Of a stretch of DNA of 64,000 nt, positions 1 to 10,882 are shown piece after piece. A program made the position numbers and the translations under genes. Every line of letters starts with the position of its first letter. Within the stretch, counting starts at the first letter, position 1. The notes beneath the pieces are model-generated. The model worked only from the letters and a program-made list of their open reading frames with translations. It ran no database searches and was not told where the DNA came from. Origin of the DNA: an uncultured Pseudomonadales bacterium (GTDB taxonomy: Bacteria; Patescibacteriota; Microgenomatia; UBA1400; PJMF01); contig CAYSQA010000002.1 of assembly GCA_964433225.1 (NCBI GenBank), forward strand, positions 8,642 through 72,641, written 5' to 3'.

Positions 1-218
1 AGAATATATGCGGTCTCATTATGAAGATTGAAAGGCAGCGCATGATTGAGAAAAAAAGCTTGGAGCAAAAAGAAGTTCAAACTCATATAAACCAAGTTTG
101 TCACAAGGAGGATTGCTGATATTTTAAAGACAAAGAGCACCAAACTTTCACGGATAGGCTCGTTGATGTATTGACTCTCAGATTCTTCTGTCTGAGTTTG
201 GATAGTGGGTCTCGTCAT
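1..218 (-). CDS. Partial ORF running off the window start; hypothetical membrane protein (N-terminus MTRPTIQTQTEE...)
   Basis: ATG at 218-216 on the minus strand stays open to position 1. The product has a hydrophobic stretch (FKISAILLVTNLVYMSLNFFLL). It is not in the ORF track because it is truncated. No family recognised. Confidence 0.25.
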   Translation of the reverse strand, partial: MTRPTIQTQTEESESQYINEPIRESLVLFVFKISAILLVTNLVYMSLNFFLLQAFFLNHALPFNLHNETAYI

Positions 219-238
219 ATAATTCTACTTGGTAATTT

Positions 239-430
239 TCAATGATGGGAAGAATTCTTTTTTGTGGTTTGATCATGATCACCATGTCCCAAAAAAAGAT
301 GAATTAAAGGACATGCAAAAATGATAAGTCCAAACACACCCAAACTTTGTACCTGAGGAATAAAAAGGTACGCCAACACAACGATACCCGCTAAAACTAA
401 GCACAGAACTAAGCGATTACCATGTTTCAT
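239..430 (-). CDS. Small two-TM His-rich membrane protein, DUF2933-like
   Basis: 63 aa with two hydrophobic helices, a CPLIHLFLGHGDHDQ motif and a His-rich C-terminus. This resembles the small metal-operon DUF2933 family; the name is from memory. It is the last gene of the copper island. Confidence 0.5.
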   Translation of the reverse strand: MKHGNRLVLCLVLAGIVVLAYLFIPQVQSLGVFGLIIFACPLIHLFLGHGDHDQTTKKNSSHH

Positions 431-501
431 ATGTCCTCCTATCTGTGAACTATATAAAAAGAAACATGAAGCTAGGATGAAATGAGTGTACTAACAAGCT
501 G

Positions 502-2109
502 TTAGATAACTTTAAATTGGCTCATCATTCCCGACTCCATATGCTCAGGAATATGGCAGTGCACCATCCAGTCTCCAGGGTTTGAGATATCAAGTAAAAT
601 ATCAACAGTCTCACCTCTACCAACCAAAACTGTATCTTTCCACACCAAGTTGTCGTTCGGTACTCCGTTTTTTGCCAGTACCAAAAATCTTTGACCATGG
701 AAGTGAATCGGGTGCTGCATCGGATGCATGGAGTTAGGATCATTGAAAATACTGATTTTAACTTTATCTCCCTGTTCAAACTGCCAATCGATATCCATAT
801 TCTCTTTGTTGGTCTGTGAATCAACAAGCTTCCACTTAAGCGTCTTTGTGGTTGACCCTTGATTCATCATGCTCATGGTATCTTCCCATTCAATGGGTCC
901 TTCATCATCGCCCATTTGCATAGCACTGTTACTCATCATCTGCCCATTGCCCATCATGTGCATATCGTGACCACCTCCGCTTGTAGAGCCTTCACTACTA
1001 GAACTGCCCATAACCAACGATAGAGTAATTTTCTTGTCCGGAGTTTTGTCAATAAACGAGCGGTACTGTGCCAGCTCTTGTACCTTGTCATTGTTAACTC
1101 TGGAAACCGGCAGGTAGGAAGTAGTCACAGTGCTAGGTTCAACGGCTATTGTGCCCAATGAATATGATTTATCAGGAGTTTTGTTGGCTATTGTGAAATC
1201 ACCAGACTGCGTAAAGTAGACTTCCACCACATATCGCTCTGAGGGTCCAATAGTGACTGATTCGACCCATTCTTCTTTCTCATATTTGCCGCTATCCCCA
1301 CCAACCAATTTCATACGAGCACTGGGGATAGTGAAGTTAAACACTCTAGTGTTGGCGGCATTAGTGATATAAAACCGTACCCGCTCACCCTGTTTTATAG
1401 GTAGTTTAAAGTCGCTCTCGCCATTTATGAGCATCGTGTTGCCAAACCTCCCCATAAGCGTGTGATTGACGGTCTCTTTATCAAATGAGGCAATCTGTCC
1501 GTTTTCCAGCAGAATATCATCAAGAAATAGTGCTTCTTCACGATCCACCTCAACCCAATAGTCTGGCTGTTCAGGAGTTACGATAAAGTTGCCGTACAAC
1601 CCCAGCTCCTGAGCATAATCCTCACGGATATGCGGGTGGTACCAATACACACCTTCATTAGGGAATTTCAGTTGATAGGTGAAGGATTGACCAGGTTTAA
1701 TAGGTTTCTGGGTAACATCTGGCACTCCATCAAATTTATTATCAACCCTGACTCCGTGTGAGTGGAGGGTAGTGTCAACATCAGTGTTATTGGTAAAGTT
1801 GACGGTTATTTGAGCTCCTTTCGAAACTTTAATCAAAGTCCCAGGGATAGAGCCGTTATACGCCAGCATTTTCACTTCCTGACCGTTGATTGTTTTTTTA
1901 ACAATCTCTGCCGATAAATTATAGGTGTCTCCGTCTTTTAGAGAAACAGTTTCTTGTGGTTTCGCGGCAGGAAGATTTGCAGGTGAAGAAACAAAAGAAC
2001 CACCTTCATTCTTATCCAGTTGTAAAAATTTGTTACTAAAAAATAAAAACACTCCCAAAATTAGGATCACAATCAACACTATTACAGAAAAAAATTGTTT
2101 GCTTTTCAT
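502..2109 (-). CDS. Multicopper oxidase (CueO/PcoA-like cuprous oxidase) with Met-rich insert
   Basis: Multicopper-oxidase copper ligand motifs are present: HSHG, WYHPHIRE, HPIHFHG and HCHIPEHMESGMM. A Met-rich segment follows (GHDMHMMGNGQMMSNSAMQMGDDEG...MSMMNQG). There is an N-terminal TM/signal. Confidence 0.85.
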   Translation of the reverse strand: MKSKQFFSVIVLIVILILGVFLFFSNKFLQLDKNEGGSFVSSPANLPAAKPQETVSLKDGDTYNLSAEIVKKTINGQEVKMLAYNGSIPGTLIKVSKGAQITVNFTNNTDVDTTLHSHGVRVDNKFDGVPDVTQKPIKPGQSFTYQLKFPNEGVYWYHPHIREDYAQELGLYGNFIVTPEQPDYWVEVDREEALFLDDILLENGQIASFDKETVNHTLMGRFGNTMLINGESDFKLPIKQGERVRFYITNAANTRVFNFTIPSARMKLVGGDSGKYEKEEWVESVTIGPSERYVVEVYFTQSGDFTIANKTPDKSYSLGTIAVEPSTVTTSYLPVSRVNNDKVQELAQYRSFIDKTPDKKITLSLVMGSSSSEGSTSGGGHDMHMMGNGQMMSNSAMQMGDDEGPIEWEDTMSMMNQGSTTKTLKWKLVDSQTNKENMDIDWQFEQGDKVKISIFNDPNSMHPMQHPIHFHGQRFLVLAKNGVPNDNLVWKDTVLVGRGETVDILLDISNPGDWMVHCHIPEHMESGMMSQFKVI

Positions 2110-2138
2110 ATATCATTTACAAACTCCCTTTAATTATC

Positions 2139-2771
2139 TCACCTAGCTAGCTTTTCCGGTGATTGGTTTTTATATGTCTCAATATATTTTTGAATTAGTG
2201 CTTTATCAACAGAATCAAGCCGCATCATTTTTCCCCAGGAAGCCACTACAACTTTACTATCGTTTCCTGAGCGAGGAGATACTACTGTGCTTTGCGAGTT
2301 TTGCTTGCCGATCTCTTCCAGAGCTTCAATATCTTCTTCTGAAATATCTTTGTATGAGATCCAAATGCCTCCATGTTCCAGATTGTGAACGCCTGCTTTG
2401 TCATCTATTTCCTCATTATAAATACCCCAATTTTTAGCTGTTGCTAAGTGTCCACCAGAAGTAGGTGGATTTGTTTGGTACTCAACTGCCGTATCGGCTG
2501 CTATGTGATCCCTACCTTCTATTTCAAACTCCTCAACTTTTCCTTCCAAAGTAATGGTTTCTATTTGCTGTTCAAATTCAATCTGCTCGGGAGACTTCTT
2601 GGTCAATTGGATGGATCCAAAAATGCCTGCAATCAAAATAATGACAACCAAACTCCAGTTGCGAGCCTTCTTCAACAATTTTGCTTTCTTCTCTCGTTCC
2701 TTCCGTAGGGTTTTGAGGTTTTTCTTACGCTCATGCTTAGGTAATTGATTCCATTCTTCTGGATAATCCAT
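2139..2771 (-). CDS. Membrane-anchored DUF3105-like protein
   Basis: Lys-rich N-terminus, one TM and a conserved PPTSGGH...HNLEHGG core. This recalls DUF3105; the family name is from memory. Confidence 0.5.
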   Translation of the reverse strand: MDYPEEWNQLPKHERKKNLKTLRKEREKKAKLLKKARNWSLVVIILIAGIFGSIQLTKKSPEQIEFEQQIETITLEGKVEEFEIEGRDHIAADTAVEYQTNPPTSGGHLATAKNWGIYNEEIDDKAGVHNLEHGGIWISYKDISEEDIEALEEIGKQNSQSTVVSPRSGNDSKVVVASWGKMMRLDSVDKALIQKYIETYKNQSPEKLAR

Positions 2772-2829
2772 GGTTTCCTTTCAAATTAGTTCCCAGGTTT
2801 CCTTTCAAATTAGTTCCCATATATACTGT

Positions 2830-3579
2830 TCAAACTGCCAAAATATTCAAATTAAAAAACTGAAGCAACCACATTGATAATAATTCGACCTTACCTAATA
2901 TAAGGAGCGCACCTATCAGTAAAATAACAATTCCCGCAAGTAAATTTAGATATCTACCCAACCTTTTGGTGATCACTAGTTTGCTTGAGATTTTTTCAAA
3001 AAATAAAGCTACAACCAAAAATGGGATACCTAACCCAATGCCGTATGCAAGTAGTAGGCTCATTCCTTGCCAAACTGTTTCGGTTTGAGCTGCCCAAAAT
3101 AAAATTACCGCCAGTACAGGACCAATACATGGAGTCCAGGCAAAACCAAATGTTAAGCCAACAAAAAAAGAATTGAGTTTGCGGAATTTAGTTGGTGATA
3201 CAGATAGTCGTAATTTTCTTTCTTGGTACAAAAAATGAGGTTTGATGATGTTTAACATAAAAAGGCCCATGATAATGAACAAAAAGCCACCTAGTTTCCT
3301 AATAAGAGGCTTATATATCCCCAAAAACCTTCCCAGAGTATTAGTGGTAGCGCCTAGTAAAACAAATACAAAAATAAAGCCAATCGTGAAGATCAAGCCA
3401 TTAATAAATATATCTCGTTTAAAAACTTTCTTGTGCGAATCGTCTATTGTCCTAGAAGTAGCAATGCCAGATAGATAAGCAATATACGTTGGGACCAAGG
3501 GCAGCAAACACGAGGCAAAAAAGGTAATGACACCTCCAATAAAAGCTATTAATAAGTTTACCTGTGAACCGTCAAACAT
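2830..3579 (-). CDS. ccdA: CcdA/DsbD-family thiol-disulfide electron transporter
   Basis: Polytopic membrane protein with the two conserved Cys motifs CLLPLVP and TPCIGPVL typical of CcdA/DsbD transmembrane domains. Confidence 0.8.
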   Translation of the reverse strand: MFDGSQVNLLIAFIGGVITFFASCLLPLVPTYIAYLSGIATSRTIDDSHKKVFKRDIFINGLIFTIGFIFVFVLLGATTNTLGRFLGIYKPLIRKLGGFLFIIMGLFMLNIIKPHFLYQERKLRLSVSPTKFRKLNSFFVGLTFGFAWTPCIGPVLAVILFWAAQTETVWQGMSLLLAYGIGLGIPFLVVALFFEKISSKLVITKRLGRYLNLLAGIVILLIGALLILGKVELLSMWLLQFFNLNILAV

Positions 3580-3647
3580 ATTTTCAATTACCTAATGACC
3601 CACAGGTGATAGGAAGTCTATCACCTGTGCTTCAATTTTTATTCGGA

Positions 3648-4427
3648 CTACAGGTATTTTTCGATAGCCTGTTTTACTTGTTCATATGGTAGGGCTCCTG
3701 GAATCATTTCTTGAACACCATCTTCTGTGACAATAAAGGTGCCAGGAGTGCCGCTTACCCCAGCTGCGCTCCCCTTTGCAAACTGGTCTTTAACTTTTTC
3801 TGCCATTTCATCACTATCTAGACATTTTTGCACAGCATTTTCGTTTGCACCTGCTTCAGCACCAAGTGGAGCCAAGTCTGATAGAGGAAACCCTGTTCCA
3901 TTTGAACTAGTTCTTTCAAAGTAGAGATCTACAAAATTCCAATAGGCTTCATTGCCAGCTAATTTACCAACACATTCCGAAGCTTCAGCGGCTTTTTGTG
4001 CATTTGCATGGAAGCTGAGTGGGTAATGTCGGTAAACCCAAGCCACTTGATCACCATACTCATCCATAACTTGTTGCATGGTGGGATGAAAACGTTGACA
4101 GAAAGGGCACTCAAAGTCTGAATATTCAACTAAAGTGACCTTTGCGTTTTTTGCTCCACGTATGTATTCATCTTTACCAACTTCTGGTAAGTTTCCAAGC
4201 TGATCTGCTGTCGGACCTGATGGGGCAGCAGGTGCAGCGGCCGTAGGAGCGCCACCTGCGTTATTGGTGGTACCAACAGTGTTACCACTTCTCAATATTT
4301 GGTTTTCTGTCCACAGCGAGCCACCAAAAAACCCAACGCCTAAAAATACAAAGCTAAGAGCAACTACTAAAAAATTTTGGTTGAGAAAGTTAAGTAATGC
4401 GCTAAATGAATAATCTGATTGTGACAT
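3648..4427 (-). CDS. Membrane-anchored thioredoxin-fold (DsbA-like) thiol:disulfide oxidoreductase
   Basis: N-terminal TM, Ala/Pro-rich linker and a thioredoxin fold with active site FECPFCQRF (CPFC). Confidence 0.75.
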   Translation of the reverse strand: MSQSDYSFSALLNFLNQNFLVVALSFVFLGVGFFGGSLWTENQILRSGNTVGTTNNAGGAPTAAAPAAPSGPTADQLGNLPEVGKDEYIRGAKNAKVTLVEYSDFECPFCQRFHPTMQQVMDEYGDQVAWVYRHYPLSFHANAQKAAEASECVGKLAGNEAYWNFVDLYFERTSSNGTGFPLSDLAPLGAEAGANENAVQKCLDSDEMAEKVKDQFAKGSAAGVSGTPGTFIVTEDGVQEMIPGALPYEQVKQAIEKYL

Positions 4428-4455
4428 AAGAAAGTTCTCCGATTAGTAATAATCA

Positions 4456-4469
4456 CCTACAACTGTAGG
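4456..4469. promoter_or_regulatory. Inverted repeat CCTACA-AC-TGTAGG (cop-box/bla-operator-like, TACAnnTGTA core) upstream of dsbA-like gene
   Basis: Perfect 6-2-6 inverted repeat in the 59-bp gap between the BlaR1-like stop and the DsbA-like start. A second copy is at 5845-5858. Confidence 0.55.
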
Positions 4470-4486
4470 AGATAAAATGTGTCTTG

Positions 4487-5497
4487 TCAATTAGAAAAAG
4501 TTGAAGTTGAGAAGGAAGCAGACACAAGAGGGGAGAAATTATGAACGCTGTCAGTTTCATATCCTGAGCAACCAGTTGTTTGACAACCAGTTCCCTCACT
4601 ACACACACCTCCAGCCATAGAAGCATAATTTGCTGTTGCTTTATTTGGTTCGACAAAAGCTATTCCCAACATAATCATTATGCTGAGAATGCTTGCCGCA
4701 AGTGGTTTAAGACTGATCCACTCAATATGATGTTTGTCCCCAACCAAAGACTCCACCCGTTTTTCTATTGGTGAAGTTGCAAAATTAGGAACTGCTTTGC
4801 TCGTATACTGTAAATGTAGCGCAAGTGACTCGCACAAATAATGTCTAGTTTTCTGCTTCTCAATCACAAAAGCATCTGCCATTAACTCAAACTCTGTTTG
4901 CAATTGTCGAGCCAAGTAGTCAATCAGGGGTACAAAAAATAACATAGAACTAACCAAGCGAGATATTAGCAACCAAAAAACATGGAAACTTTTCAAGTGA
5001 TACAGCTCATGGAGAATTACTGCCTCTAGTTGTTTTTCTGTGAGCTTGTTCACTAAGGCCTTTGAAACCACTATCTTGGGTTTGAGTAGGCCTACTGTGT
5101 AGGCAACCAACCTAGTATCGTAAATAACTGAAATCATCCCGTCTTCAAGTTGATGCTTTTCGACAATTCGTCCAAGTTTTTTTGGAATATGATCATTTGT
5201 TTTAAGTTGATTCAAACGTCTATGTTCCGATAAAAACATTTTTAGTCGCCATACAGTCATGCTTGTGCCAATAAATGCGATAAGTAATACAAAAGAAGAC
5301 ACCACACCATTGGGATTAAAATGAACGTGTTGATTGATATTCTTTAGAATTTCGCCACAAGTAGTTATAAATAGTTGGGGATGCAGAGTGGCCTTGGTTG
5401 CTATTAGATACGTTCCCAGCACCAAGACCAAGCCAGAAGCTATAGTAAATATCATTGATAAACTAATCTTAATTTTCATTATTTTGTAATTTTTCAA
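4487..5497 (-). CDS. BlaR1/MecR1-like M56 zinc-metalloprotease signal transducer with Cys-rich C-terminal tail (no beta-lactam sensor domain)
   Basis: Four predicted TM segments, an HEXXH motif (ILHELYHLKSFH) in the loop and a short C-terminus, GGVCSEGTGCQTTGCSGYETD. It overlaps the upstream repressor gene. The true start may be an internal Met (MKIKISL). Confidence 0.7.
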   Translation of the reverse strand: MKNYKIMKIKISLSMIFTIASGLVLVLGTYLIATKATLHPQLFITTCGEILKNINQHVHFNPNGVVSSFVLLIAFIGTSMTVWRLKMFLSEHRRLNQLKTNDHIPKKLGRIVEKHQLEDGMISVIYDTRLVAYTVGLLKPKIVVSKALVNKLTEKQLEAVILHELYHLKSFHVFWLLISRLVSSMLFFVPLIDYLARQLQTEFELMADAFVIEKQKTRHYLCESLALHLQYTSKAVPNFATSPIEKRVESLVGDKHHIEWISLKPLAASILSIMIMLGIAFVEPNKATANYASMAGGVCSEGTGCQTTGCSGYETDSVHNFSPLVSASFSTSTFSN

Positions 5498-5879
5498 TTA
5501 ATTTTTGACGAGTTTGGTCAGAAATATTACCTAATCCATCAACAAAAGCGATTAGGGCTTCTTCACCAAATTGATTGGTAAAACTCCCCATAGTCTGGTT
5601 TATTAAAGAAGAAAGAATGCTTTTTTGCTCTACAGCTGGTTTATATATATGCGTTTTGCCTTCCAAACTTCTCTCGAGCAATCTCTTGTCTACCAATCGA
5701 GTCATAATAGTTTGAACAGTATTGTAGGCAATTTTCCGACTTTGAGTTAGGCACTCAAGCACATCCCGAGTGGTGCAGGTTTTCTTTCTCCAAACGAAAC
5801 TCATCACTTCTTGCTCCAGTGGTCCTAGTGAAACATTTCTCATACCTACAAGTGTAGGATTTAACATTAAAAATTTCAA
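5469..5879 (-). CDS. BlaI/MecI/CopY-family winged-helix transcriptional repressor
   Basis: LGPLEQEVMSFVW...TTRDVLECL...IAYNTVQTIMTRLVDKRLLER matches the penicillinase-repressor family. It has no C-terminal CxC...CxC copper site. The likely true start is MRNVSLGP at 5843, directly downstream of the 5845-5858 operator. Confidence 0.8.
   Translation of the reverse strand: MKFLMLNPTLVGMRNVSLGPLEQEVMSFVWRKKTCTTRDVLECLTQSRKIAYNTVQTIMTRLVDKRLLERSLEGKTHIYKPAVEQKSILSSLINQTMGSFTNQFGEEALIAFVDGLGNISDQTRQKLIEKLQNNEN
5845..5858. promoter_or_regulatory. Inverted repeat CCTACA-AG-TGTAGG (cop-box-like) at the 5' end of the BlaI/CopY-like gene
   Basis: Perfect 6-2-6 inverted repeat. It lies 2 nt upstream of the preferred ATG at 5843, or inside the N-terminal extension if 5879 is the start. 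Confidence 0.5.
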
Positions 5880-5892
5880 TCAGAAGAAATCA

Positions 5893-7263
5893 TTACTTAA
5901 CTTCAACTACAGTCATCATTCCTGCTTCAGCATGTTCCAAGGCATGGCAGTGACTCGCCCATACACCCTCATCAAGAGGCATCAAGCCGATATCGACTGT
6001 TTCTTTTGATTTGATAAGTACCGTGTCACGCAAATACGGTTCATCCACTTGCTGACCATTTCGAGCTAACACTTTGAAAAATTGACCATGTAAGTGCATT
6101 GGGTGGAGCCGAGCCGACTCATTTGTAAAGCGGATCACATTATACTCACCTTTTTTTAAGGTAATTGGATCGTAATCAGGGTAGACTTTGTCATTGATTG
6201 TCCATTCGATGCCAAACTGGCCGCCTCTACGGGCATTCAATCGATACTCTTTATCAATAATTCTTTTAGTGTCACTTGTCCAGTCAGGAAATACTGTTGC
6301 TGCTGGTGGTTGGATATCTTTCACCGCGTCAACATTTCCATCAATGGTGATTGTGGCTAGTGTGTTAGATTGACGAGTGAATGTATCCCGTATTACATAC
6401 GGTTTTGAGCGTGAAAGTTGGGGAACAAAAACATCAACATCAATTCGATTACCCGGAGCTAGTTCAAATCCCTGAGCTGTAAAAGGCTCTTTTGCCAGCA
6501 TGCCATCAACGGCAAAGCCCTGTACTTCCAAATCTCCAAAATCAAGCTTGTAAACGCGAGCGTTCGATGTGTTTACTAATCTCAGTCTTAATCTCTCGCC
6601 AGCTTTTGCTTGTAATTCATAGTTTAGTTGTCCATTTACCGTAATAACATTACCCCAACGTCCATCATGCATCAAATCATGACCTGTATTGAATCGTTCG
6701 TCTAGTTGACCATTTTCAGTCAGCCGCCAATCATCAAGCACTAAGACTTGATCTTGGTCATAAGTAGGCTCTTTCGAATCTTCAACCACAATCACTCCAT
6801 ACAACCCACGTTCTACCTGCTCACTACCTCGCACATGAGGGTGGTACCAAAAGGTCCCCGCATCTTTGGGAGTGAACTCATACGTAAATTGTTCTCCTGG
6901 TTGAATTGGTTCCTGAGTTACACCTGGCACTCCATCCATAGCATTAGGAACCCTGATGCCGTGAAAATGGATTGTCGTGGGCTGGAGCAAATTGTTGGTA
7001 AAATTTATTTTGAGTGTCTCACCTTTGGTAATTCGAATTTCTGGTCCAGGTACTTGATCGTTGTAACTCCATACATTGAAAGAGGAGTTTTGCCCAAGTG
7101 AAATAGTAGTTTTTTGCGCTATTAGGTCAACTTCTTTTATTTCCCCAGTAGCTTGAATTGATTCGGGATATGGTAACTTGGAGTTGAGTGGCGACCAAAA
7201 ACGCAGTCCCACCAGAATGGCAGCAAAGACCAAGCTAATGAAAAAATATTTCCTGTTCGCCAT
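5893..7263 (-). CDS. Multicopper oxidase (second paralog, no Met-rich insert)
   Basis: HFHG, WYHPHVRG, HPMHLHG and HCHALEHAEAGMM motifs. The start was chosen at MANRKYFF (ATG 7263-7261), preceded by GGAGG and 1 nt after the copB TAG stop. The ORF-track start at 7308 is an upstream extension. Confidence 0.85.
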   Translation of the reverse strand: MANRKYFFISLVFAAILVGLRFWSPLNSKLPYPESIQATGEIKEVDLIAQKTTISLGQNSSFNVWSYNDQVPGPEIRITKGETLKINFTNNLLQPTTIHFHGIRVPNAMDGVPGVTQEPIQPGEQFTYEFTPKDAGTFWYHPHVRGSEQVERGLYGVIVVEDSKEPTYDQDQVLVLDDWRLTENGQLDERFNTGHDLMHDGRWGNVITVNGQLNYELQAKAGERLRLRLVNTSNARVYKLDFGDLEVQGFAVDGMLAKEPFTAQGFELAPGNRIDVDVFVPQLSRSKPYVIRDTFTRQSNTLATITIDGNVDAVKDIQPPAATVFPDWTSDTKRIIDKEYRLNARRGGQFGIEWTINDKVYPDYDPITLKKGEYNVIRFTNESARLHPMHLHGQFFKVLARNGQQVDEPYLRDTVLIKSKETVDIGLMPLDEGVWASHCHALEHAEAGMMTVVEVK

Positions 7264-7264
7264 A

Positions 7265-9397
7265 CTACGCCTCCACTGCCAGCTTGGCATTTCGCAGAGA
7301 CATAGCATTAACTACAACAATCACCGAGGAGAGACTCATTAACAAGGCTCCTACTGCTGGACTCAGACGAAATCCAAAAGGAATAAACAATCCTGCTGCA
7401 GCTGGAATGGCGACGATGTTATAGCCAAGTGCCCACCATAAATTTTGCAGCATTTTGGCATAGACTTTTCTGGAAAGAACAATCAACCGTACGATGTGCT
7501 GAGGATTGGACTGCGTCAAGATAATGTCGCCAGCTTCAACCGCCACATCAGTACCTGCCCCAATGGCTACACCCGCATTAGCTTGGGTTAAGGCAGGAGC
7601 ATCATTAACCCCATCACCAGCCATGACTACTACATTGCCAGCATCTTGTAGCTCCCGAATATACTTATACTTATCCTCTGGCAAAACTTCAGCAAATACC
7701 GTGTCTATGCCCAGTTGTTTAGCAATTGGCTCTGCAGCTGACTTTGTGTCACCAGTCAGCATCGCAACCTTAACTCCCAACTGGTGTAGCTGCGCCACAG
7801 CCTGCTTGGACTCTTCTTTCACTTGATCACTCAGGGCAATAACACCTAAAACTTTATTTTTATCTGCCACAAAAACTGGTGTTTTGCCTTCTGTAGAAAG
7901 TTTCTTGTATACCTCAGCTACATTTTCATCCCAAACCTTTCGTTCTTCCATTAAGCGTTTGTTGCCCAGGAAATATTGTTTTTCGTTATACGTTCCTTCC
8001 ATACCTTTACCAGCTAAGTTCTTGATTTTGGAAGCCTCAGTCAATGTGATCTTCTCTTTTTGCAAGTGCTGAACAATTGCCATACCAATCACATGAGAAG
8101 AATGCGTTTCAATACTACCTGCTATCTGAAGTAATTGTTTTTCTGTACCTGAAAAAACAGTGATACCAGTTACACCAAACTCACCTTTAGTTAGAGTGCC
8201 TGTCTTATCGAAAACAACATAATCAGCTGCTTTGACGACTTCTATTTTTCCCATATCCTTGATAAACACCCCATTTTTGACTGCCAAACGAGTAGCAATA
8301 GTAGAGACAGTGGGAATAGCTAATCCAAGGGCATGAGGGCAGGCAATTACTAAAACCGTGATAGCCAGTGTGGCAGCAAACACAACCGACTCACCAACTA
8401 GTATTGACCATATCAGAAGCGATGCGATAGCAACTCCAAGTGCAGTAAAAGTCAACCATTTTGCAGCACGGTCAGCTAGCTTTTGTGCTGATGGTTTGGT
8501 TTGTTTAGCTTCAGAAATAAGGCTTTGAATTTGACCGATTGTTGAAGATTCACCAACTCGCATTAGTTTAACTTCAACAGAACCATCAATACTTATGGCA
8601 CCAGCTACCACTTCACTTCCTGGTTTTTTTTCGACAGGTTTTGATTCTCCAGTAATATGTGCTTCATTGAAGTTACCACTGCCCTTTAGTATTTCACCAT
8701 CAGCAGGGACTTTTTCACCCGGTTTAACAATAACGACATCGCCTTCTTTCAACGAAGTCAGTTCAACTTCTGTAACACCATTCTTGGTTTTAAGGTGAGC
8801 TTCCTTTGGTAGCAATTTAGCAACTTCTTGCAACGCATCTCCTGCCGCAGTCGATGATTTGGCTTCCAAAAAGTGTCCAAAAAGTAGCACCCAAATCAAA
8901 GTTGCTATTTCCAAGTAAAACTCCATTTCAATCTGAGGCAAGAAAGTTGCCGCAGCAGAAAAGAGATATCCTGAACCAACAGCCAAAGAAACCAAGGTCA
9001 TCATGCCATACTGCTTCATTTGAATCTCATGACGAGCGTGTTCAAAGAAAACTAAACCAAAATAGAAAATGATTGAAGCAATGGCAAATTCTAGATATGA
9101 GCGGAGAGCGAAATCCGGCATACCAAGTAACGTAACCGCTGGTTCAGAAAAAATTGCTAGTGGTACGAGTAGGGCAGTGACAATAAAAAAACGTTTTAGA
9201 AAGTCAGCTGCCGCTTCAGGACTAGCCATCATACTAGCGTGATCATGCTCAACATGGCCATTGTCCATCTCACTTTTTTTCACCAAATACATACCTCCAC
9301 ACTTAGGACACTTGCCTGGCTTTTTCTCCATGATCTCTGGATGCATTGGACAAGTGTAATAGTCTTGGTGGTCAGTGTGTAGGTGGTTGTGTTTCAT
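7265..9397 (-). CDS. copB: Copper-translocating P1B-type ATPase, CopB-like (CPH motif, His-rich N-terminus)
   Basis: His-rich N-terminus MKHNHLHTDHQDYYTCPMHPE...CPKCGGM. TM motif IACPHALG (CPH). Phosphorylation motif DKTGTLT and hinge motif GDGVNDAPAL. Confidence 0.9.
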   Translation of the reverse strand: MKHNHLHTDHQDYYTCPMHPEIMEKKPGKCPKCGGMYLVKKSEMDNGHVEHDHASMMASPEAAADFLKRFFIVTALLVPLAIFSEPAVTLLGMPDFALRSYLEFAIASIIFYFGLVFFEHARHEIQMKQYGMMTLVSLAVGSGYLFSAAATFLPQIEMEFYLEIATLIWVLLFGHFLEAKSSTAAGDALQEVAKLLPKEAHLKTKNGVTEVELTSLKEGDVVIVKPGEKVPADGEILKGSGNFNEAHITGESKPVEKKPGSEVVAGAISIDGSVEVKLMRVGESSTIGQIQSLISEAKQTKPSAQKLADRAAKWLTFTALGVAIASLLIWSILVGESVVFAATLAITVLVIACPHALGLAIPTVSTIATRLAVKNGVFIKDMGKIEVVKAADYVVFDKTGTLTKGEFGVTGITVFSGTEKQLLQIAGSIETHSSHVIGMAIVQHLQKEKITLTEASKIKNLAGKGMEGTYNEKQYFLGNKRLMEERKVWDENVAEVYKKLSTEGKTPVFVADKNKVLGVIALSDQVKEESKQAVAQLHQLGVKVAMLTGDTKSAAEPIAKQLGIDTVFAEVLPEDKYKYIRELQDAGNVVVMAGDGVNDAPALTQANAGVAIGAGTDVAVEAGDIILTQSNPQHIVRLIVLSRKVYAKMLQNLWWALGYNIVAIPAAAGLFIPFGFRLSPAVGALLMSLSSVIVVVNAMSLRNAKLAVEA

Positions 9398-9416
9398 AAC
9401 ATTGTTTGCAGTTCAT

Positions 9417-10007
9417 TTACTTTTTATGAGCTTGTTTAAGAAAGAAATATGTTCCAGAGGTAAAGAATGCAATGGCAACAATCCGAGTTGCTGTCCCAAG
9501 GAAACTATATGATCCATATCCCATCATTGAACCAAAGCCCATCATATTAGTCGAGCCGCTAAGACTTCTATTGTTGGCGTAGCCCATCATGCCTCTGCCC
9601 ATCATTCCAGGACCATAGTTTGTATTGGTACCGTAACCTAAGTAAGCTTGTCCCATAGTAATATGCATTTGACGCAAAGAGTCCGAACCTTCACCGCCCA
9701 TCATCCTATCCATTGCCTCATGTGCTTCTCCCGGATGCTGAAGTTCCATTACAGCATCGCCTAATCGCTCCCATTCATCATCACTGACTTTTGACAAGTC
9801 AAGTTCTTGTACTGTCTGTACATTTTGACTGCTGAGTACATCTTGCAAAACTACTTCTACAGACTCGGCGTGTTCTTCCTTTGCACTTACTTCAGTTTCA
9901 TCCCCATCGAATCCCATCATCGAACCCATCTGTGCCTGCGTCTTAGGAACTACAAAACCAAGCGAAAGAAATGTAAGTAATAATAGGGTGGTAACAGTTT
10001 TTTTCAT
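9417..10007 (-). CDS. Secreted Met/Gly-rich protein with C-terminal membrane anchor; putative Cu(I)-binding
   Basis: Signal peptide, then repeated MMG, GMMG and MMGY motifs and a C-terminal hydrophobic helix. AAAGGAG SD. First gene of the copper island. Confidence 0.6.
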   Translation of the reverse strand: MKKTVTTLLLLTFLSLGFVVPKTQAQMGSMMGFDGDETEVSAKEEHAESVEVVLQDVLSSQNVQTVQELDLSKVSDDEWERLGDAVMELQHPGEAHEAMDRMMGGEGSDSLRQMHITMGQAYLGYGTNTNYGPGMMGRGMMGYANNRSLSGSTNMMGFGSMMGYGSYSFLGTATRIVAIAFFTSGTYFFLKQAHKK

Positions 10008-10174
10008 ACAAACTCCTTTTATGAACTAAGTTAATCATAAAGCAGATTAAGAGAAGATGAAATCGCACTTACACGGCTGTTAAACCAACATTTGTTGTTT
10101 TCAGCGTTTTTTAGCAAGCCCCATCAACCCATTTAGTCATAATGGACGGGTCTATCAGAACTTTTCGGTACTTG

Positions 10175-10259
10175 CGGAGGCAATGGGATTTGAACCCATG
10201 AACCGGAGATCCGGTCAGGTTTAGCAAACCTGTGCAATTGGCCACTATGCGATGCCTCC
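10175..10259 (-). tRNA. tRNA-Ser (anticodon GCT), long variable arm
   Basis: Manual fold: acceptor GGAGGCA/TGCCTCC, anticodon stem CAGGT/ACCTG, loop TTGCTAA, variable-arm stem CCGGA/TCCGG, T-loop TTCAAAT. Confidence 0.85.
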
Positions 10260-10363
10260 TAGTTTTGATCAGCCCAGATTATACCAGTCATTTTTTGGGT
10301 AGACTATGTTAAAAAACCCAACTCTTGAGAGTTAGTTCAGAAGTCGGTAGACTTAAGCTAGTT

Positions 10364-10882
10364 ATGAAAAAGTCTTTTTTATTATTAGTGGTTTTGGTTG
10401 CGGCAGTGTTTTTTACTGGTTGTCAGGCTCCAGAGGGGGACGATAACTTGGAGTTGAAAAAAATTAATGGAGGTTTAGAAATAGATAAGGCTGATCAAGT
10501 TGTTCCCCAGGTGGGTATTCCTGCCGATGAAGATGATTTTGCTAATCCACTGACAGAACAGGCTCAGAAAAGTGGTCTTACTACAGACGATGTTCAACAA
10601 GTTAGGGAGAAGCTCGCTGAGAGTTTTAAGATGGATTTAGCAGAAATTCAGATTACGGCCGAAGCAGAAAGTAGTTTAGAGTTTATGACTGGTTTTGTGA
10701 ACGTTGGTGAAGGTGATAAAGGAGGTATTTATTTTGCAGCCAAAACCACTGATGGTTGGCAAATTGCTCACAATGGGGTTGGTTTGGTTTATTGTGAGAT
10801 AGTTGATAAATATAACTTCCCGGTGGGAATGATTCCCAAGTGTTATGATGCAGTGACGGGAATGTCCAAAGAAAGAGAATAG
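10364..10882 (+). CDS. Lipoprotein, hypothetical
   Basis: MKKSFLLLVVLVAAVFFTGC signal peptide plus lipobox. The start at 10364 is preferred over the ORF-track start at 10325. Confidence 0.6.
   Translation: MKKSFLLLVVLVAAVFFTGCQAPEGDDNLELKKINGGLEIDKADQVVPQVGIPADEDDFANPLTEQAQKSGLTTDDVQQVREKLAESFKMDLAEIQITAEAESSLEFMTGFVNVGEGDKGGIYFAAKTTDGWQIAHNGVGLVYCEIVDKYNFPVGMIPKCYDAVTGMSKERE

Follow-up and report, generated by a model that had tools for sequence, protein, structure and literature searches.

This report concerns a 64-kb window (the whole stretch of DNA analysed, with positions counted from its first letter) from an uncultured Patescibacteria bacterium, in which the genes between 239 and 10007 are all encoded by the minus strand and form one gene run. 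Within this run, the gene of a BlaI/MecI/CopY-family repressor (blaI) overlaps that of an M56-family membrane zinc protease, and the next gene is dsbA, the first gene of a predicted regulated operon, dsbA-ccdA-DUF3105-multicopper oxidase-DUF2933. These genes form a real, well-conserved regulatory module. The reading that we prefer, with a probability of roughly 0.6, is a BlaI/BlaR-type switch for proteolytic derepression, in which a cysteine latch between an extracytoplasmic loop and the C-terminal tail of the protease would respond to copper or thiol stress in the cell envelope. What is observed, and what this reading is built on, are the domain identities, the architecture and conservation of the operators and promoters, the synteny, and the conservation and pairing of the cysteines. 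The features at the centre of the argument are the following.

5469..5843 (stop codon included), minus strand: BlaI/MecI/CopY-family winged-helix repressor, 124 amino acids (aa), Pfam PF03965
5544..5549, minus strand: codons of Ala99-Phe100 in the FGEEALIAFVDGL helix of the repressor; A99 and F100 at least 90% conserved in 28 repressors
4487..5479, minus strand: M56/M48 membrane zinc protease, 330 aa, matching Peptidase_M56 and M48
5845..5858, no strand assigned: Operator 1 (predicted), CCTACACTTGTAGG on the coding strand, overlapping the -10 box of the blaI-M56 promoter and ending 1 nt before the ATG
4456..4469, no strand assigned: Operator 2 (predicted), CCTACAGTTGTAGG on the coding strand, overlapping the -10 box of the dsbA promoter
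5851..5879, minus strand: putative promoter P_blaI, -35 box TTGAAA (5874-5879), 17-bp spacer, -10 box TACACT (5851-5856); 9/12 in the consensus scan
4462..4490, minus strand: putative promoter P_dsbA, -35 box TTGACA (4485-4490), 17-bp spacer, -10 box TACAGT (4462-4467); 10/12 in the consensus scan

The palindrome CCTACANNTGTAGG (CCTACA-NN-TGTAGG) occurs exactly twice in the 64 kb, also when one mismatch is allowed: as CCTACAACTGTAGG at 4456-4469 and as CCTACAAGTGTAGG at 5845-5858, the two copies to which the sequence-only reading of this DNA had pointed. Only 0.08 copies are expected, and none of 100 shuffles reached two. The 10-bp core TACANNTGTA, which is the published operator core of BlaI, MecI, and CopY (PMC7253601), is not significant on its own in the window (two found against 1.24 expected); the signal therefore sits in the flanking CC/GG. 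A further 13 distinct loci, whose proteases are 40-60% identical to that of the window, have both palindromes at the orthologous positions. Operator 1 stands at the same position in all 14 loci, with at most one mismatch and always followed by T-ATG, and Operator 2 is identical in 13 of the 14, with one mismatch in locus L012. In the window, Operator 2 extends to an imperfect 22-bp palindrome (4452-4473), and the 22-bp palindrome is perfect in L001 and L007.

In the anchored alignments, site 1 reads aTTGaa, 17 bp, CCTACACTtGTAGG-T-ATG, and site 2 reads ATTGACA, 17 bp, CCTACAGTTGTAGG, while the spacers and the downstream leaders drift freely among the loci and the palindromes stay. The TTGaa of P_blaI is conserved across the loci at this same spacing, and the ATTGACA of P_dsbA, the -35 box of which overlaps the protease stop codon, is invariant at a fixed spacing in 14/14 loci. 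Because each palindrome is fixed 17 bp after a -35 box, each operator contains the -10 hexamer of a sigma-70-type promoter; P_dsbA (TTGACA-17-TACAGT) is also the top promoter-like match of the consensus scan in 1-10400. At the centre of the palindrome, each site has its own conserved pair of bases, CT in the blaI copy and GT in the dsbA copy, completing TACACT and TACAGT, respectively, so that the “NN” is constrained by promoter function and is not free. In more distant clades, both promoters again carry an operator, of the related form CTACA-N3-TGTAG and 17 bp downstream of TTGAC(A/T). As the palindromes are invariant at orthologous positions in 14 loci while their flanks drift, and as each lies over a -10 box, their behaviour as operators is supported, with repressor binding as the prediction. 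In other words, the palindrome with a TACA-NN-TGTA core that is typical of the PF03965 family is present at both predicted regulated promoters in the 14 loci. We also considered 4456-4469 as a weak terminator hairpin and set this aside: the sequence itself, and not merely its pairing, is invariant, and it lies a fixed 17 bp from the invariant TTGACA.

The repressor gene starts at ATG 5843, because the order palindrome-T-ATG is kept in 14 loci; the TTG at 5879, from which the gene had at first been read (5469-5879), belongs to the -35 box. Site 1 was thus rightly placed at the start of the repressor gene, and it lies just upstream of the gene and not within it. Since the ATG follows the -10 box by 7 nt, the blaI-M56 mRNA is probably leaderless, with its transcription start predicted from the promoter. 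The family assignment made from the sequence alone was correct. Penicillinase_R (PF03965) matches with an E-value of 1.4e-24 and 87.1 bits against a cutoff of 22.6, over profile positions 1-114 of 115 (Pfam), and the nearest solved relative is the BlaI of Mycobacterium tuberculosis (2g9w), whose alignment spans the Ala99-Phe100 helix. Homologs of the repressor are 63-83% identical, and the helix is conserved in them. We take Ala99-Phe100 to be the putative counterpart of the N101-F102 cleavage site of Staphylococcus aureus BlaI, a residue that no alignment reached, and on this basis we infer a cut near Ala99-Phe100.

It was also right that the C-terminal CxCx(4-5)CxC site for Cu(I)/Zn is absent. 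The C-terminus reads ...QKLIEKLQNNEN, and no Cys follows residue 31. If the repressor nevertheless sensed copper directly, as CopY does, its N-terminal cysteines (16, 23, 31) would bind copper or be oxidised, and the protease would merely clear the released repressor. Across the repressor family (alignment A3), conservation of Cys16 reaches at least 90% and Cys23 occurs frequently, and CopY_TcrY (TIGR02698) is the top NCBIfam match, although at 57.6 bits it stays below the cutoff of 121.95. However, the window repressor itself has Phe at position 16 in addition to lacking the C-terminal motif, and such a scheme leaves unexplained why Cys41 of the protease is as invariant as the catalytic residues. 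PetR, a related cyanobacterial factor compared below, likewise lacks the CopY site, and copper has no effect on its DNA binding. We therefore consider direct sensing by the repressor very improbable.

Turning to the protease, three further features are needed.

4997..5011, minus strand: HELYH zinc-binding/catalytic motif, residues 157-161, coordinates read from the sequence
5309..5398, minus strand: extracytoplasmic loop, residues 28-57, with Cys41 (5357-5359) and His51/His53, aligning with the end of the BlaR1 L2 loop
4490..4648, minus strand: extracytoplasmic C-terminal tail, residues 278-330, with Cys293, Cys299, and Cys304 (C-x5-C-x4-C; codons within 4568-4603)

The protein matches Peptidase_M56 (PF05569; 1.2e-17, 64.5 bits against a cutoff of 31) over profile positions 109-294 of 296, and M48 is matched as well. 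The sequence-only reading had assigned 4487-5497 to a four-helix protein with the N-terminal architecture of BlaR1. The M56 zinc protease with its HELYH motif stands; the start and the helices do not. The start is ATG 5479, which gives an 11-nt overlap with the end of the repressor gene, as in the homologous loci. The N-terminus is inside, and it is followed by a first transmembrane (TM) helix (TM1, 9-27), the outside loop (28-57), TM2 (58-76), the cytoplasmic protease domain, TM3 (259-277), and the outside tail (278-330). The hydrophobic residues that come after HELYH must form a re-entrant hairpin (residues 166-209) and not a TM helix, because the invariant third zinc ligand motif E198-x3-D202, which comes after it and aligns with the BlaR1 motifs, needs to be on the same side as H157 and H161. 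BlaR1 is the top match of the protease in both sequence and fold, with an alignment that starts at BlaR1 residue 97; this alignment and that of Pfam both begin at TM3 of BlaR1. The four-TM layout of BlaR1/MecR1, with the protease between TM3 and TM4, is not that of this 330-aa protein, which has three TM helices and the hairpin, and the NCBIfam model blaR1_generic gives 32.9 bits against a cutoff of 400. The profile search found no transpeptidase or penicillin-binding domain (Pfam, PF00905 included), in agreement with what had been claimed, and the protein ends 53 residues after its last TM helix.

The Cys-rich tail GGVCSEGTGCQTTGCSGYETD, already noticed in the sequence-only reading, is indeed present in the protease, and its three cysteines and that of the loop are conserved in the superfamily. 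Cys41, Cys293, Cys299, and Cys304 are invariant in 58 close homologs. The superfamily alignment (A5) has 127 members, the most distant at about 20% identity. C41 (127/127), H157, E158, H161, P184, E198, and D202 do not vary in it, and the tail cysteines are conserved to 94% (Cys293), 87% (Cys299), and 89% (Cys304). All four positions are Cys in 107 of the 127 members, 18 have a two-Cys pattern, and only two have an odd number. With either four or two cysteines in 125 of 127, the cysteines are retained or lost two at a time. Read most economically, these patterns would reflect a loop-tail pair, C41-C293, and an accessory pair within the tail, C299-C304. His51 and His53 are at least 90% conserved in the close family alone, and a His lies 7-22 residues after the loop Cys in 86 of the 127 relatives.

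An exhaustive search with a hidden Markov model gave 79 clusters (at 50% identity) at E<=1e-30 and 3,571 at E<=1e-10. Nearly all of the top 150 clusters are short M56 proteins of 255-356 aa. Among their representatives, 144 could be scored for the tail: 107 carry a three-Cys motif (C-x4-C-x3-C in 56, C-x5-C-x4-C in 8, other three-Cys forms in 43), and the remainder mostly have exactly one tail Cys. A further homolog search with a mixed-clade alignment yielded almost nothing new. Judged from these sequences, the Cys-rich tail is common across a large Patescibacteria superfamily and is not a quirk of one gene.

The same pairing could arise if the disulfides were purely structural, stapling loop to tail, while the signal was another ligand or membrane/cell-wall stress, as in other atypical BlaIR systems. 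Pairwise conservation of Cys is what such staples would give; the tail is predicted to be mostly unstructured (AlphaFold2 with the 58 close homologs gives a predicted local distance difference test score, pLDDT, below 50 for both loop and tail), and CenIR and PvmSR have no known signal despite study. However, the outside parts amount to some 30 and 50 residues, in which, beyond the cysteines and Pro278, almost nothing is conserved that could bind a ligand, and no wall enzyme is among the products of the regulated genes, which are thiol oxidoreductases and a copper oxidase. We consider this explanation improbable.

Apart from blaI-M56 itself, the module is defined by the operon behind Operator 2, the gene identities of which had been read correctly from the sequence and are backed by Pfam matches. 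In the order of transcription, its genes are as follows.

3648..4427, minus strand: DsbA-like thioredoxin-fold protein, membrane-anchored, CPFC active site (Pfam Thioredoxin_4, DSBA)
2830..3579, minus strand: CcdA/DsbD-type membrane thiol-disulfide electron transporter (Pfam DsbD_TM, DsbD_2)
2139..2771, minus strand: DUF3105 membrane-anchored protein (Pfam PF11303, 2.5e-31)
502..2109, minus strand: second multicopper oxidase, three cupredoxin domains (Pfam Cu-oxidase, Cu-oxidase_2, Cu-oxidase_3)
239..430, minus strand: DUF2933 small membrane protein with a His-rich C-terminus (Pfam PF11666), the last cluster gene before the window end

The genes are separated by 29-71 bp, and these gaps contain neither a promoter nor an operator; the second multicopper oxidase is probably co-transcribed with dsbA. 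An inverted repeat in the dsbA-ccdA gap (3596-3634; 17-nt arms, 88% complementary, 5-nt loop) may be an internal attenuator or an RNA-processing hairpin.

The gene order is widely kept. Of the related loci, 22 reach beyond M56, and in 20 of these dsbA is the very next gene; the exceptions are L022, in which a gene for a Cys-rich protein lies between the two, and L090, in which the next gene is cut off and unannotated. The order blaI-M56-dsbA persists down to about 25% protease identity, which includes the clades at 25-36% identity and one member with a 1+1-Cys pattern. Eighteen related loci have a downstream sequence long enough to look for DUF3105; 17 of them carry it, and L008 does not. Orthologs of the second multicopper oxidase (76-78% identity) lie downstream of DUF3105 in L001, L007, and L010. 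Furthermore, copper genes occur within 6-10 kb in at least 10 of the 14 loci with enough flank, where we counted HMBD or CopA-type ATPases, multicopper oxidases, CsoR, YHS, Csp, YtkA, and cupredoxins.

The interval between dsbA and DUF3105 is variable. It holds CcdA in the window or, in most sister loci, an unrelated membrane protein of about 179 aa with a CxxC motif (L001 11832-12371, L007 11839-12378, and equivalents in L003, L005, L006, L008, L088, and L089). Its CxxC lies inside a TM helix (GVGCASCGS), it has a C-terminal Cys, and searches found no Pfam match and no similarity to CcdA. It is a candidate for a new redox partner of DsbA or a metal carrier. A Cys-rich protein, exported and of about 215 aa, is encoded at 12368-13015 of L001 and also in L022, where it is the gene between M56 and dsbA and is preceded by its own copy of the operator; it carries the motifs GACCGAMDFH, GPCCCKCWRW, and DGCGGPGH and has no family assignment. 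A comparison with L016, L017, and L020 showed that the DsbA and CcdA of the window are 71-77% identical to those of L016, the protease of which is only 40% identical, whereas the window DsbA is only 35-40% identical to the DsbA of the loci with the closest proteases. From this mismatch it follows that the sensor pair and the oxidoreductase pair have been shuffled between islands.

Taken together, we propose that the switch would work as follows. A repressor dimer would sit on the two near-identical palindromes over the -10 boxes of two promoters, one of which drives blaI-M56 itself and the other dsbA-ccdA-DUF3105-multicopper oxidase-DUF2933. Its M56 partner would be held by a three-TM anchor with the zinc-protease domain in the cytoplasm and only two short segments facing outward, and the loop Cys41 (with His51/His53) and the roughly 50-residue tail with Cys293/Cys299/Cys304 would take the place of the penicillin-binding domain. 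Cys41 and Cys293, through a disulfide or a shared Cu(I), would latch TM2 to TM3, the helices on either side of the protease, and Cys299 and Cys304 would serve as an accessory pair. A change of the latch, by copper binding or by thiol oxidation/reduction, would activate the protease, which would then cut the repressor near the conserved Ala-Phe pair and so open both promoters. The steps that we infer are the binding of the repressor to DNA, its cleavage, what the signal is, and which of the latch states counts as “on”. That the latch is as minimal as this, a Cys41-Cys293 disulfide or a bridging Cu(I) directly coupling the two TM helices, is a tentative proposal, to which we would give slightly less than even odds.

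As the trigger we envisage envelope copper stress, to which a DsbA/CcdA pair and a cuprous oxidase would be the response, as in the Scs systems. Copper attacks exposed thiols, and these proteins would therefore be a matching response. Copper is the most likely trigger in view of the company of genes, the oxidase in the dsbA gene string, and the link between copper and envelope thiol damage that is known from Scs.

Several observations weigh against this reading. Even with the 127-sequence alignment, which brings the AlphaFold2 model to 84.9 overall, the loop and tail remain at 51-76. The pairwise gain and loss of Cys fits structural disulfides as well as a sensor, and it speaks for disulfide chemistry at least as strongly as for a Cu(I) site. 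Of the genes that precede blaI in the gene run (the Met-rich gene, that of the P-type ATPase, and that of the first multicopper oxidase), none was found to have an operator-like site in front of it, and a search of 9380-10330, upstream of the Met-rich and ATPase genes, gave no inverted repeat of another kind either. Since operators stand only at the promoters of blaI-M56 and of the dsbA operon, the sequence-only reading is not supported where it puts the whole copper island under this control. The remaining points concern copper itself: the loop His residues lose their conservation beyond the close family; it is dsbA, and not any copper gene, that invariably accompanies the switch across the superfamily; apart from DUF3105, nothing in L006 can be recognised as a copper gene; and in several sister loci CsoR stands beside the ATPase, so that copper is already sensed there by another regulator.

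These last points, together with the constancy of dsbA after the protease gene, 1+1-Cys members included, and with a count of four or two cysteines that looks like the signature of disulfide pairs, are what would be expected if the module were a homeostat for DsbA. The loop and tail cysteines would then be substrates of the DsbA pathway, the protease would report their oxidation state, and the switch would tune the supply of DsbA/CcdA to envelope redox (oxygen exposure, disulfide stress); the copper genes would be frequent neighbours on the same mobile islands and not the signal. Because the invariant partner is dsbA rather than copper genes, this pure redox reading is a serious rival, although we hold it to be unlikely. 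Against it stand the multicopper oxidase in the dsbA gene string of the window, L001, L007, and L010, the copper genes that accompany most loci, and the copper role that is known for the DsbA-like/DsbD-like pairs of copper clusters (Scs). It also overlaps with the copper reading, since copper itself is a thiol oxidant.

The part of the gene run that precedes the switch, and a second metal cluster elsewhere in the window, comprise the following genes.

9417-10007, minus strand: Met-rich exported protein, 196 aa, first in the order of transcription
7265-9397, minus strand: P-type ATPase with an N-terminal HMBD domain and a CPH motif in its sequence
5893-7308, minus strand: first multicopper oxidase, between the ATPase and repressor genes
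59856-60374, plus strand: ArsR-type helix-turn-helix regulator fused to a C-terminal YHS domain
60367-62583, plus strand: P-type ATPase with an HMA domain
62597-63712, plus strand: membrane protein, a fusion of DsbD_2 and cupredoxin; a similar HMA-DsbD-cupredoxin gene occurs in L089

The 196-aa protein encoded directly upstream of the ATPase has Met-Gly repeats (MMGF, MMGY, MMGRGMMGY) and no Pfam match; its gene is kept beside the ATPase in L003, L005, L007, and L016, and the protein may be a Met-based copper binder. A site GACAAGTGTA at 9349-9358 was rejected as an operator: it lies within the coding region of the ATPase (codons YTCP, metal-binding domain) and is taken as a chance occurrence. 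No CsoR gene was seen in the annotation of that portion of the island which the window contains, where short open reading frames were not scanned; the left end of the island lies beyond the window. At the other border stands a tRNA-Ser(GCT) gene (10174-10259), and the G+C content is 0.38-0.44 in the cluster (window 1-10259) against 0.29-0.40 in the rest of the window. The second metal cluster (59856-63712, plus strand) lies outside the island. Genes for type IV secretion, relaxases, or (serine) recombinases border several sister loci, which suggests that the copper/thiol clusters are mobile islands.

For PetP (which needs copper), CenR, and PvmS alike, it has still to be explained how a BlaR-type protease recognises its signal when it has no penicillin-binding domain. 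In the present case the candidate sensors are clear, as one Cys of the loop and one of the tail are conserved like catalytic residues, and the output, DsbA together with copper genes, hints at the stimulus. If the latch is shown to be the sensor, this would be the first BlaR-type protease with a Cys-based sensing chemistry and the first sensing mechanism of a sensor-less BlaR protease that can be read from sequence, and it would make a tractable model for the activation of such proteins, PetP among them. Likewise, blaI-M56, dsbA, the CxxC membrane partner, and DUF3105 would constitute a Patescibacteria-wide regulon for envelope copper/thiol stress. The module, conserved and apparently mobile and simple in its operator/promoter design, comes from a group about whose regulation very little has been established and which can be approached only by inference that does not depend on cultivation. 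DUF3105 and the 179-aa membrane protein are flagged here as likely envelope thiol or copper factors.

In the literature on DUF3105, on M56 with copper or disulfides, and on BlaI/BlaR with Patescibacteria or DsbA, we found no description of the blaI-M56-dsbA module. Its parts nevertheless resemble several known systems. On the output side, a DsbA-like protein and a DsbD/CcdA-type transporter among copper-tolerance genes recall the Scs proteins, which link copper and thiol redox and of which ScsC binds Cu(I) (PMC10907172, PMC8900818). The window has such a pair, a DsbA with CPFC and a CcdA that matches DsbD_TM, followed by the multicopper oxidase, with a predicted copper role; the two were compared by gene type. 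The Scs proteins are proteobacterial and periplasmic, and no BlaI/BlaR-type regulator is mentioned for them (PMC10907172, PMC8900818).

The atypical BlaIR systems, such as Rv1846c/Rv1845c of M. tuberculosis, CenIR of Clostridioides difficile (PMC13492132), and PvmSR of Pseudomonas aeruginosa (10.64898/2026.08.03.742534), share a repressor and an M56 protease without a beta-lactam domain. Their signals are not known, their regulons are unrelated (cell wall, virulence), and neither a 1+3 Cys signature nor an obligatory dsbA partner has been reported for them; work on further atypical pairs is in progress. CopY/CopR/TcrY of the Firmicutes (PMC7253601) share the repressor family, the 10-bp operator core, and copper-related neighbours. 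However, CopY senses Cu(I) itself through C-terminal CxC motifs and needs no dedicated protease gene; of its 16-bp consensus RNYKACANNTGTMRNY, positions 3 and 14 agree and positions 1 and 16 do not, the flanks here being CC/GG; and the ATPase of the island is not behind an operator. With BlaI/BlaR1 and MecI/MecR1 of S. aureus (8exp, 8exs; PMC9834060), the system shares the M56 core of HExxH and ExxxD, the repressor fold, the TACA-N2-TGTA core, operators at the repressor's own promoter and at a target promoter, and, with BlaR1, an extracytoplasmic loop before a protease-proximal TM helix. It differs in having no transpeptidase-like sensor (330 aa against about 585 aa), one TM helix fewer, scores far below the NCBIfam BlaR1 cutoffs, and a predicted regulon without a beta-lactamase or PBP2a gene.

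The closest precedent in logic is PetR/PetP of Synechocystis sp. PCC 6803, in which a BlaI/CopY-family factor is degraded by a sensor-less M48/M56 protease only in the presence of copper (bioRxiv 10.1101/2020.07.31.226407; PMC7896320). As here, that factor lacks the CopY metal site, its gene overlaps that of an M48/M56 protease without a penicillin-binding domain, and the Phe equivalent to the BlaI cleavage position is conserved (bioRxiv 10.1101/2020.07.31.226407). PetP, which we compared by its description and the shared Pfam families, has four TM helices and two conserved Met residues in a 14-residue loop as candidate ligands, whereas the present protease has three TM helices, a Met-free loop with an invariant Cys, and the Cys tail. 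The PetR motif is GACN5GTC (GACA-N3-TGTC at petE), in contrast to CCTACA-N2-TGTAGG; the PetRP regulon, petE and petJ with two genes of unknown function, is a cofactor switch, in contrast to the stress defence suggested by DsbA/CcdA/DUF3105/multicopper oxidase; and PetRP is cyanobacterial, whereas the system described here belongs to Patescibacteria. Since copper-dependent degradation of PetR by PetP has been published, the regulatory logic is not the uncharacterised one that the sequence-only reading had supposed. The proteolytic copper switch is already known from PetR/PetP, and what is new is a variant of it, with cysteine sensor parts, an operator, a regulon, and a phylum of its own.

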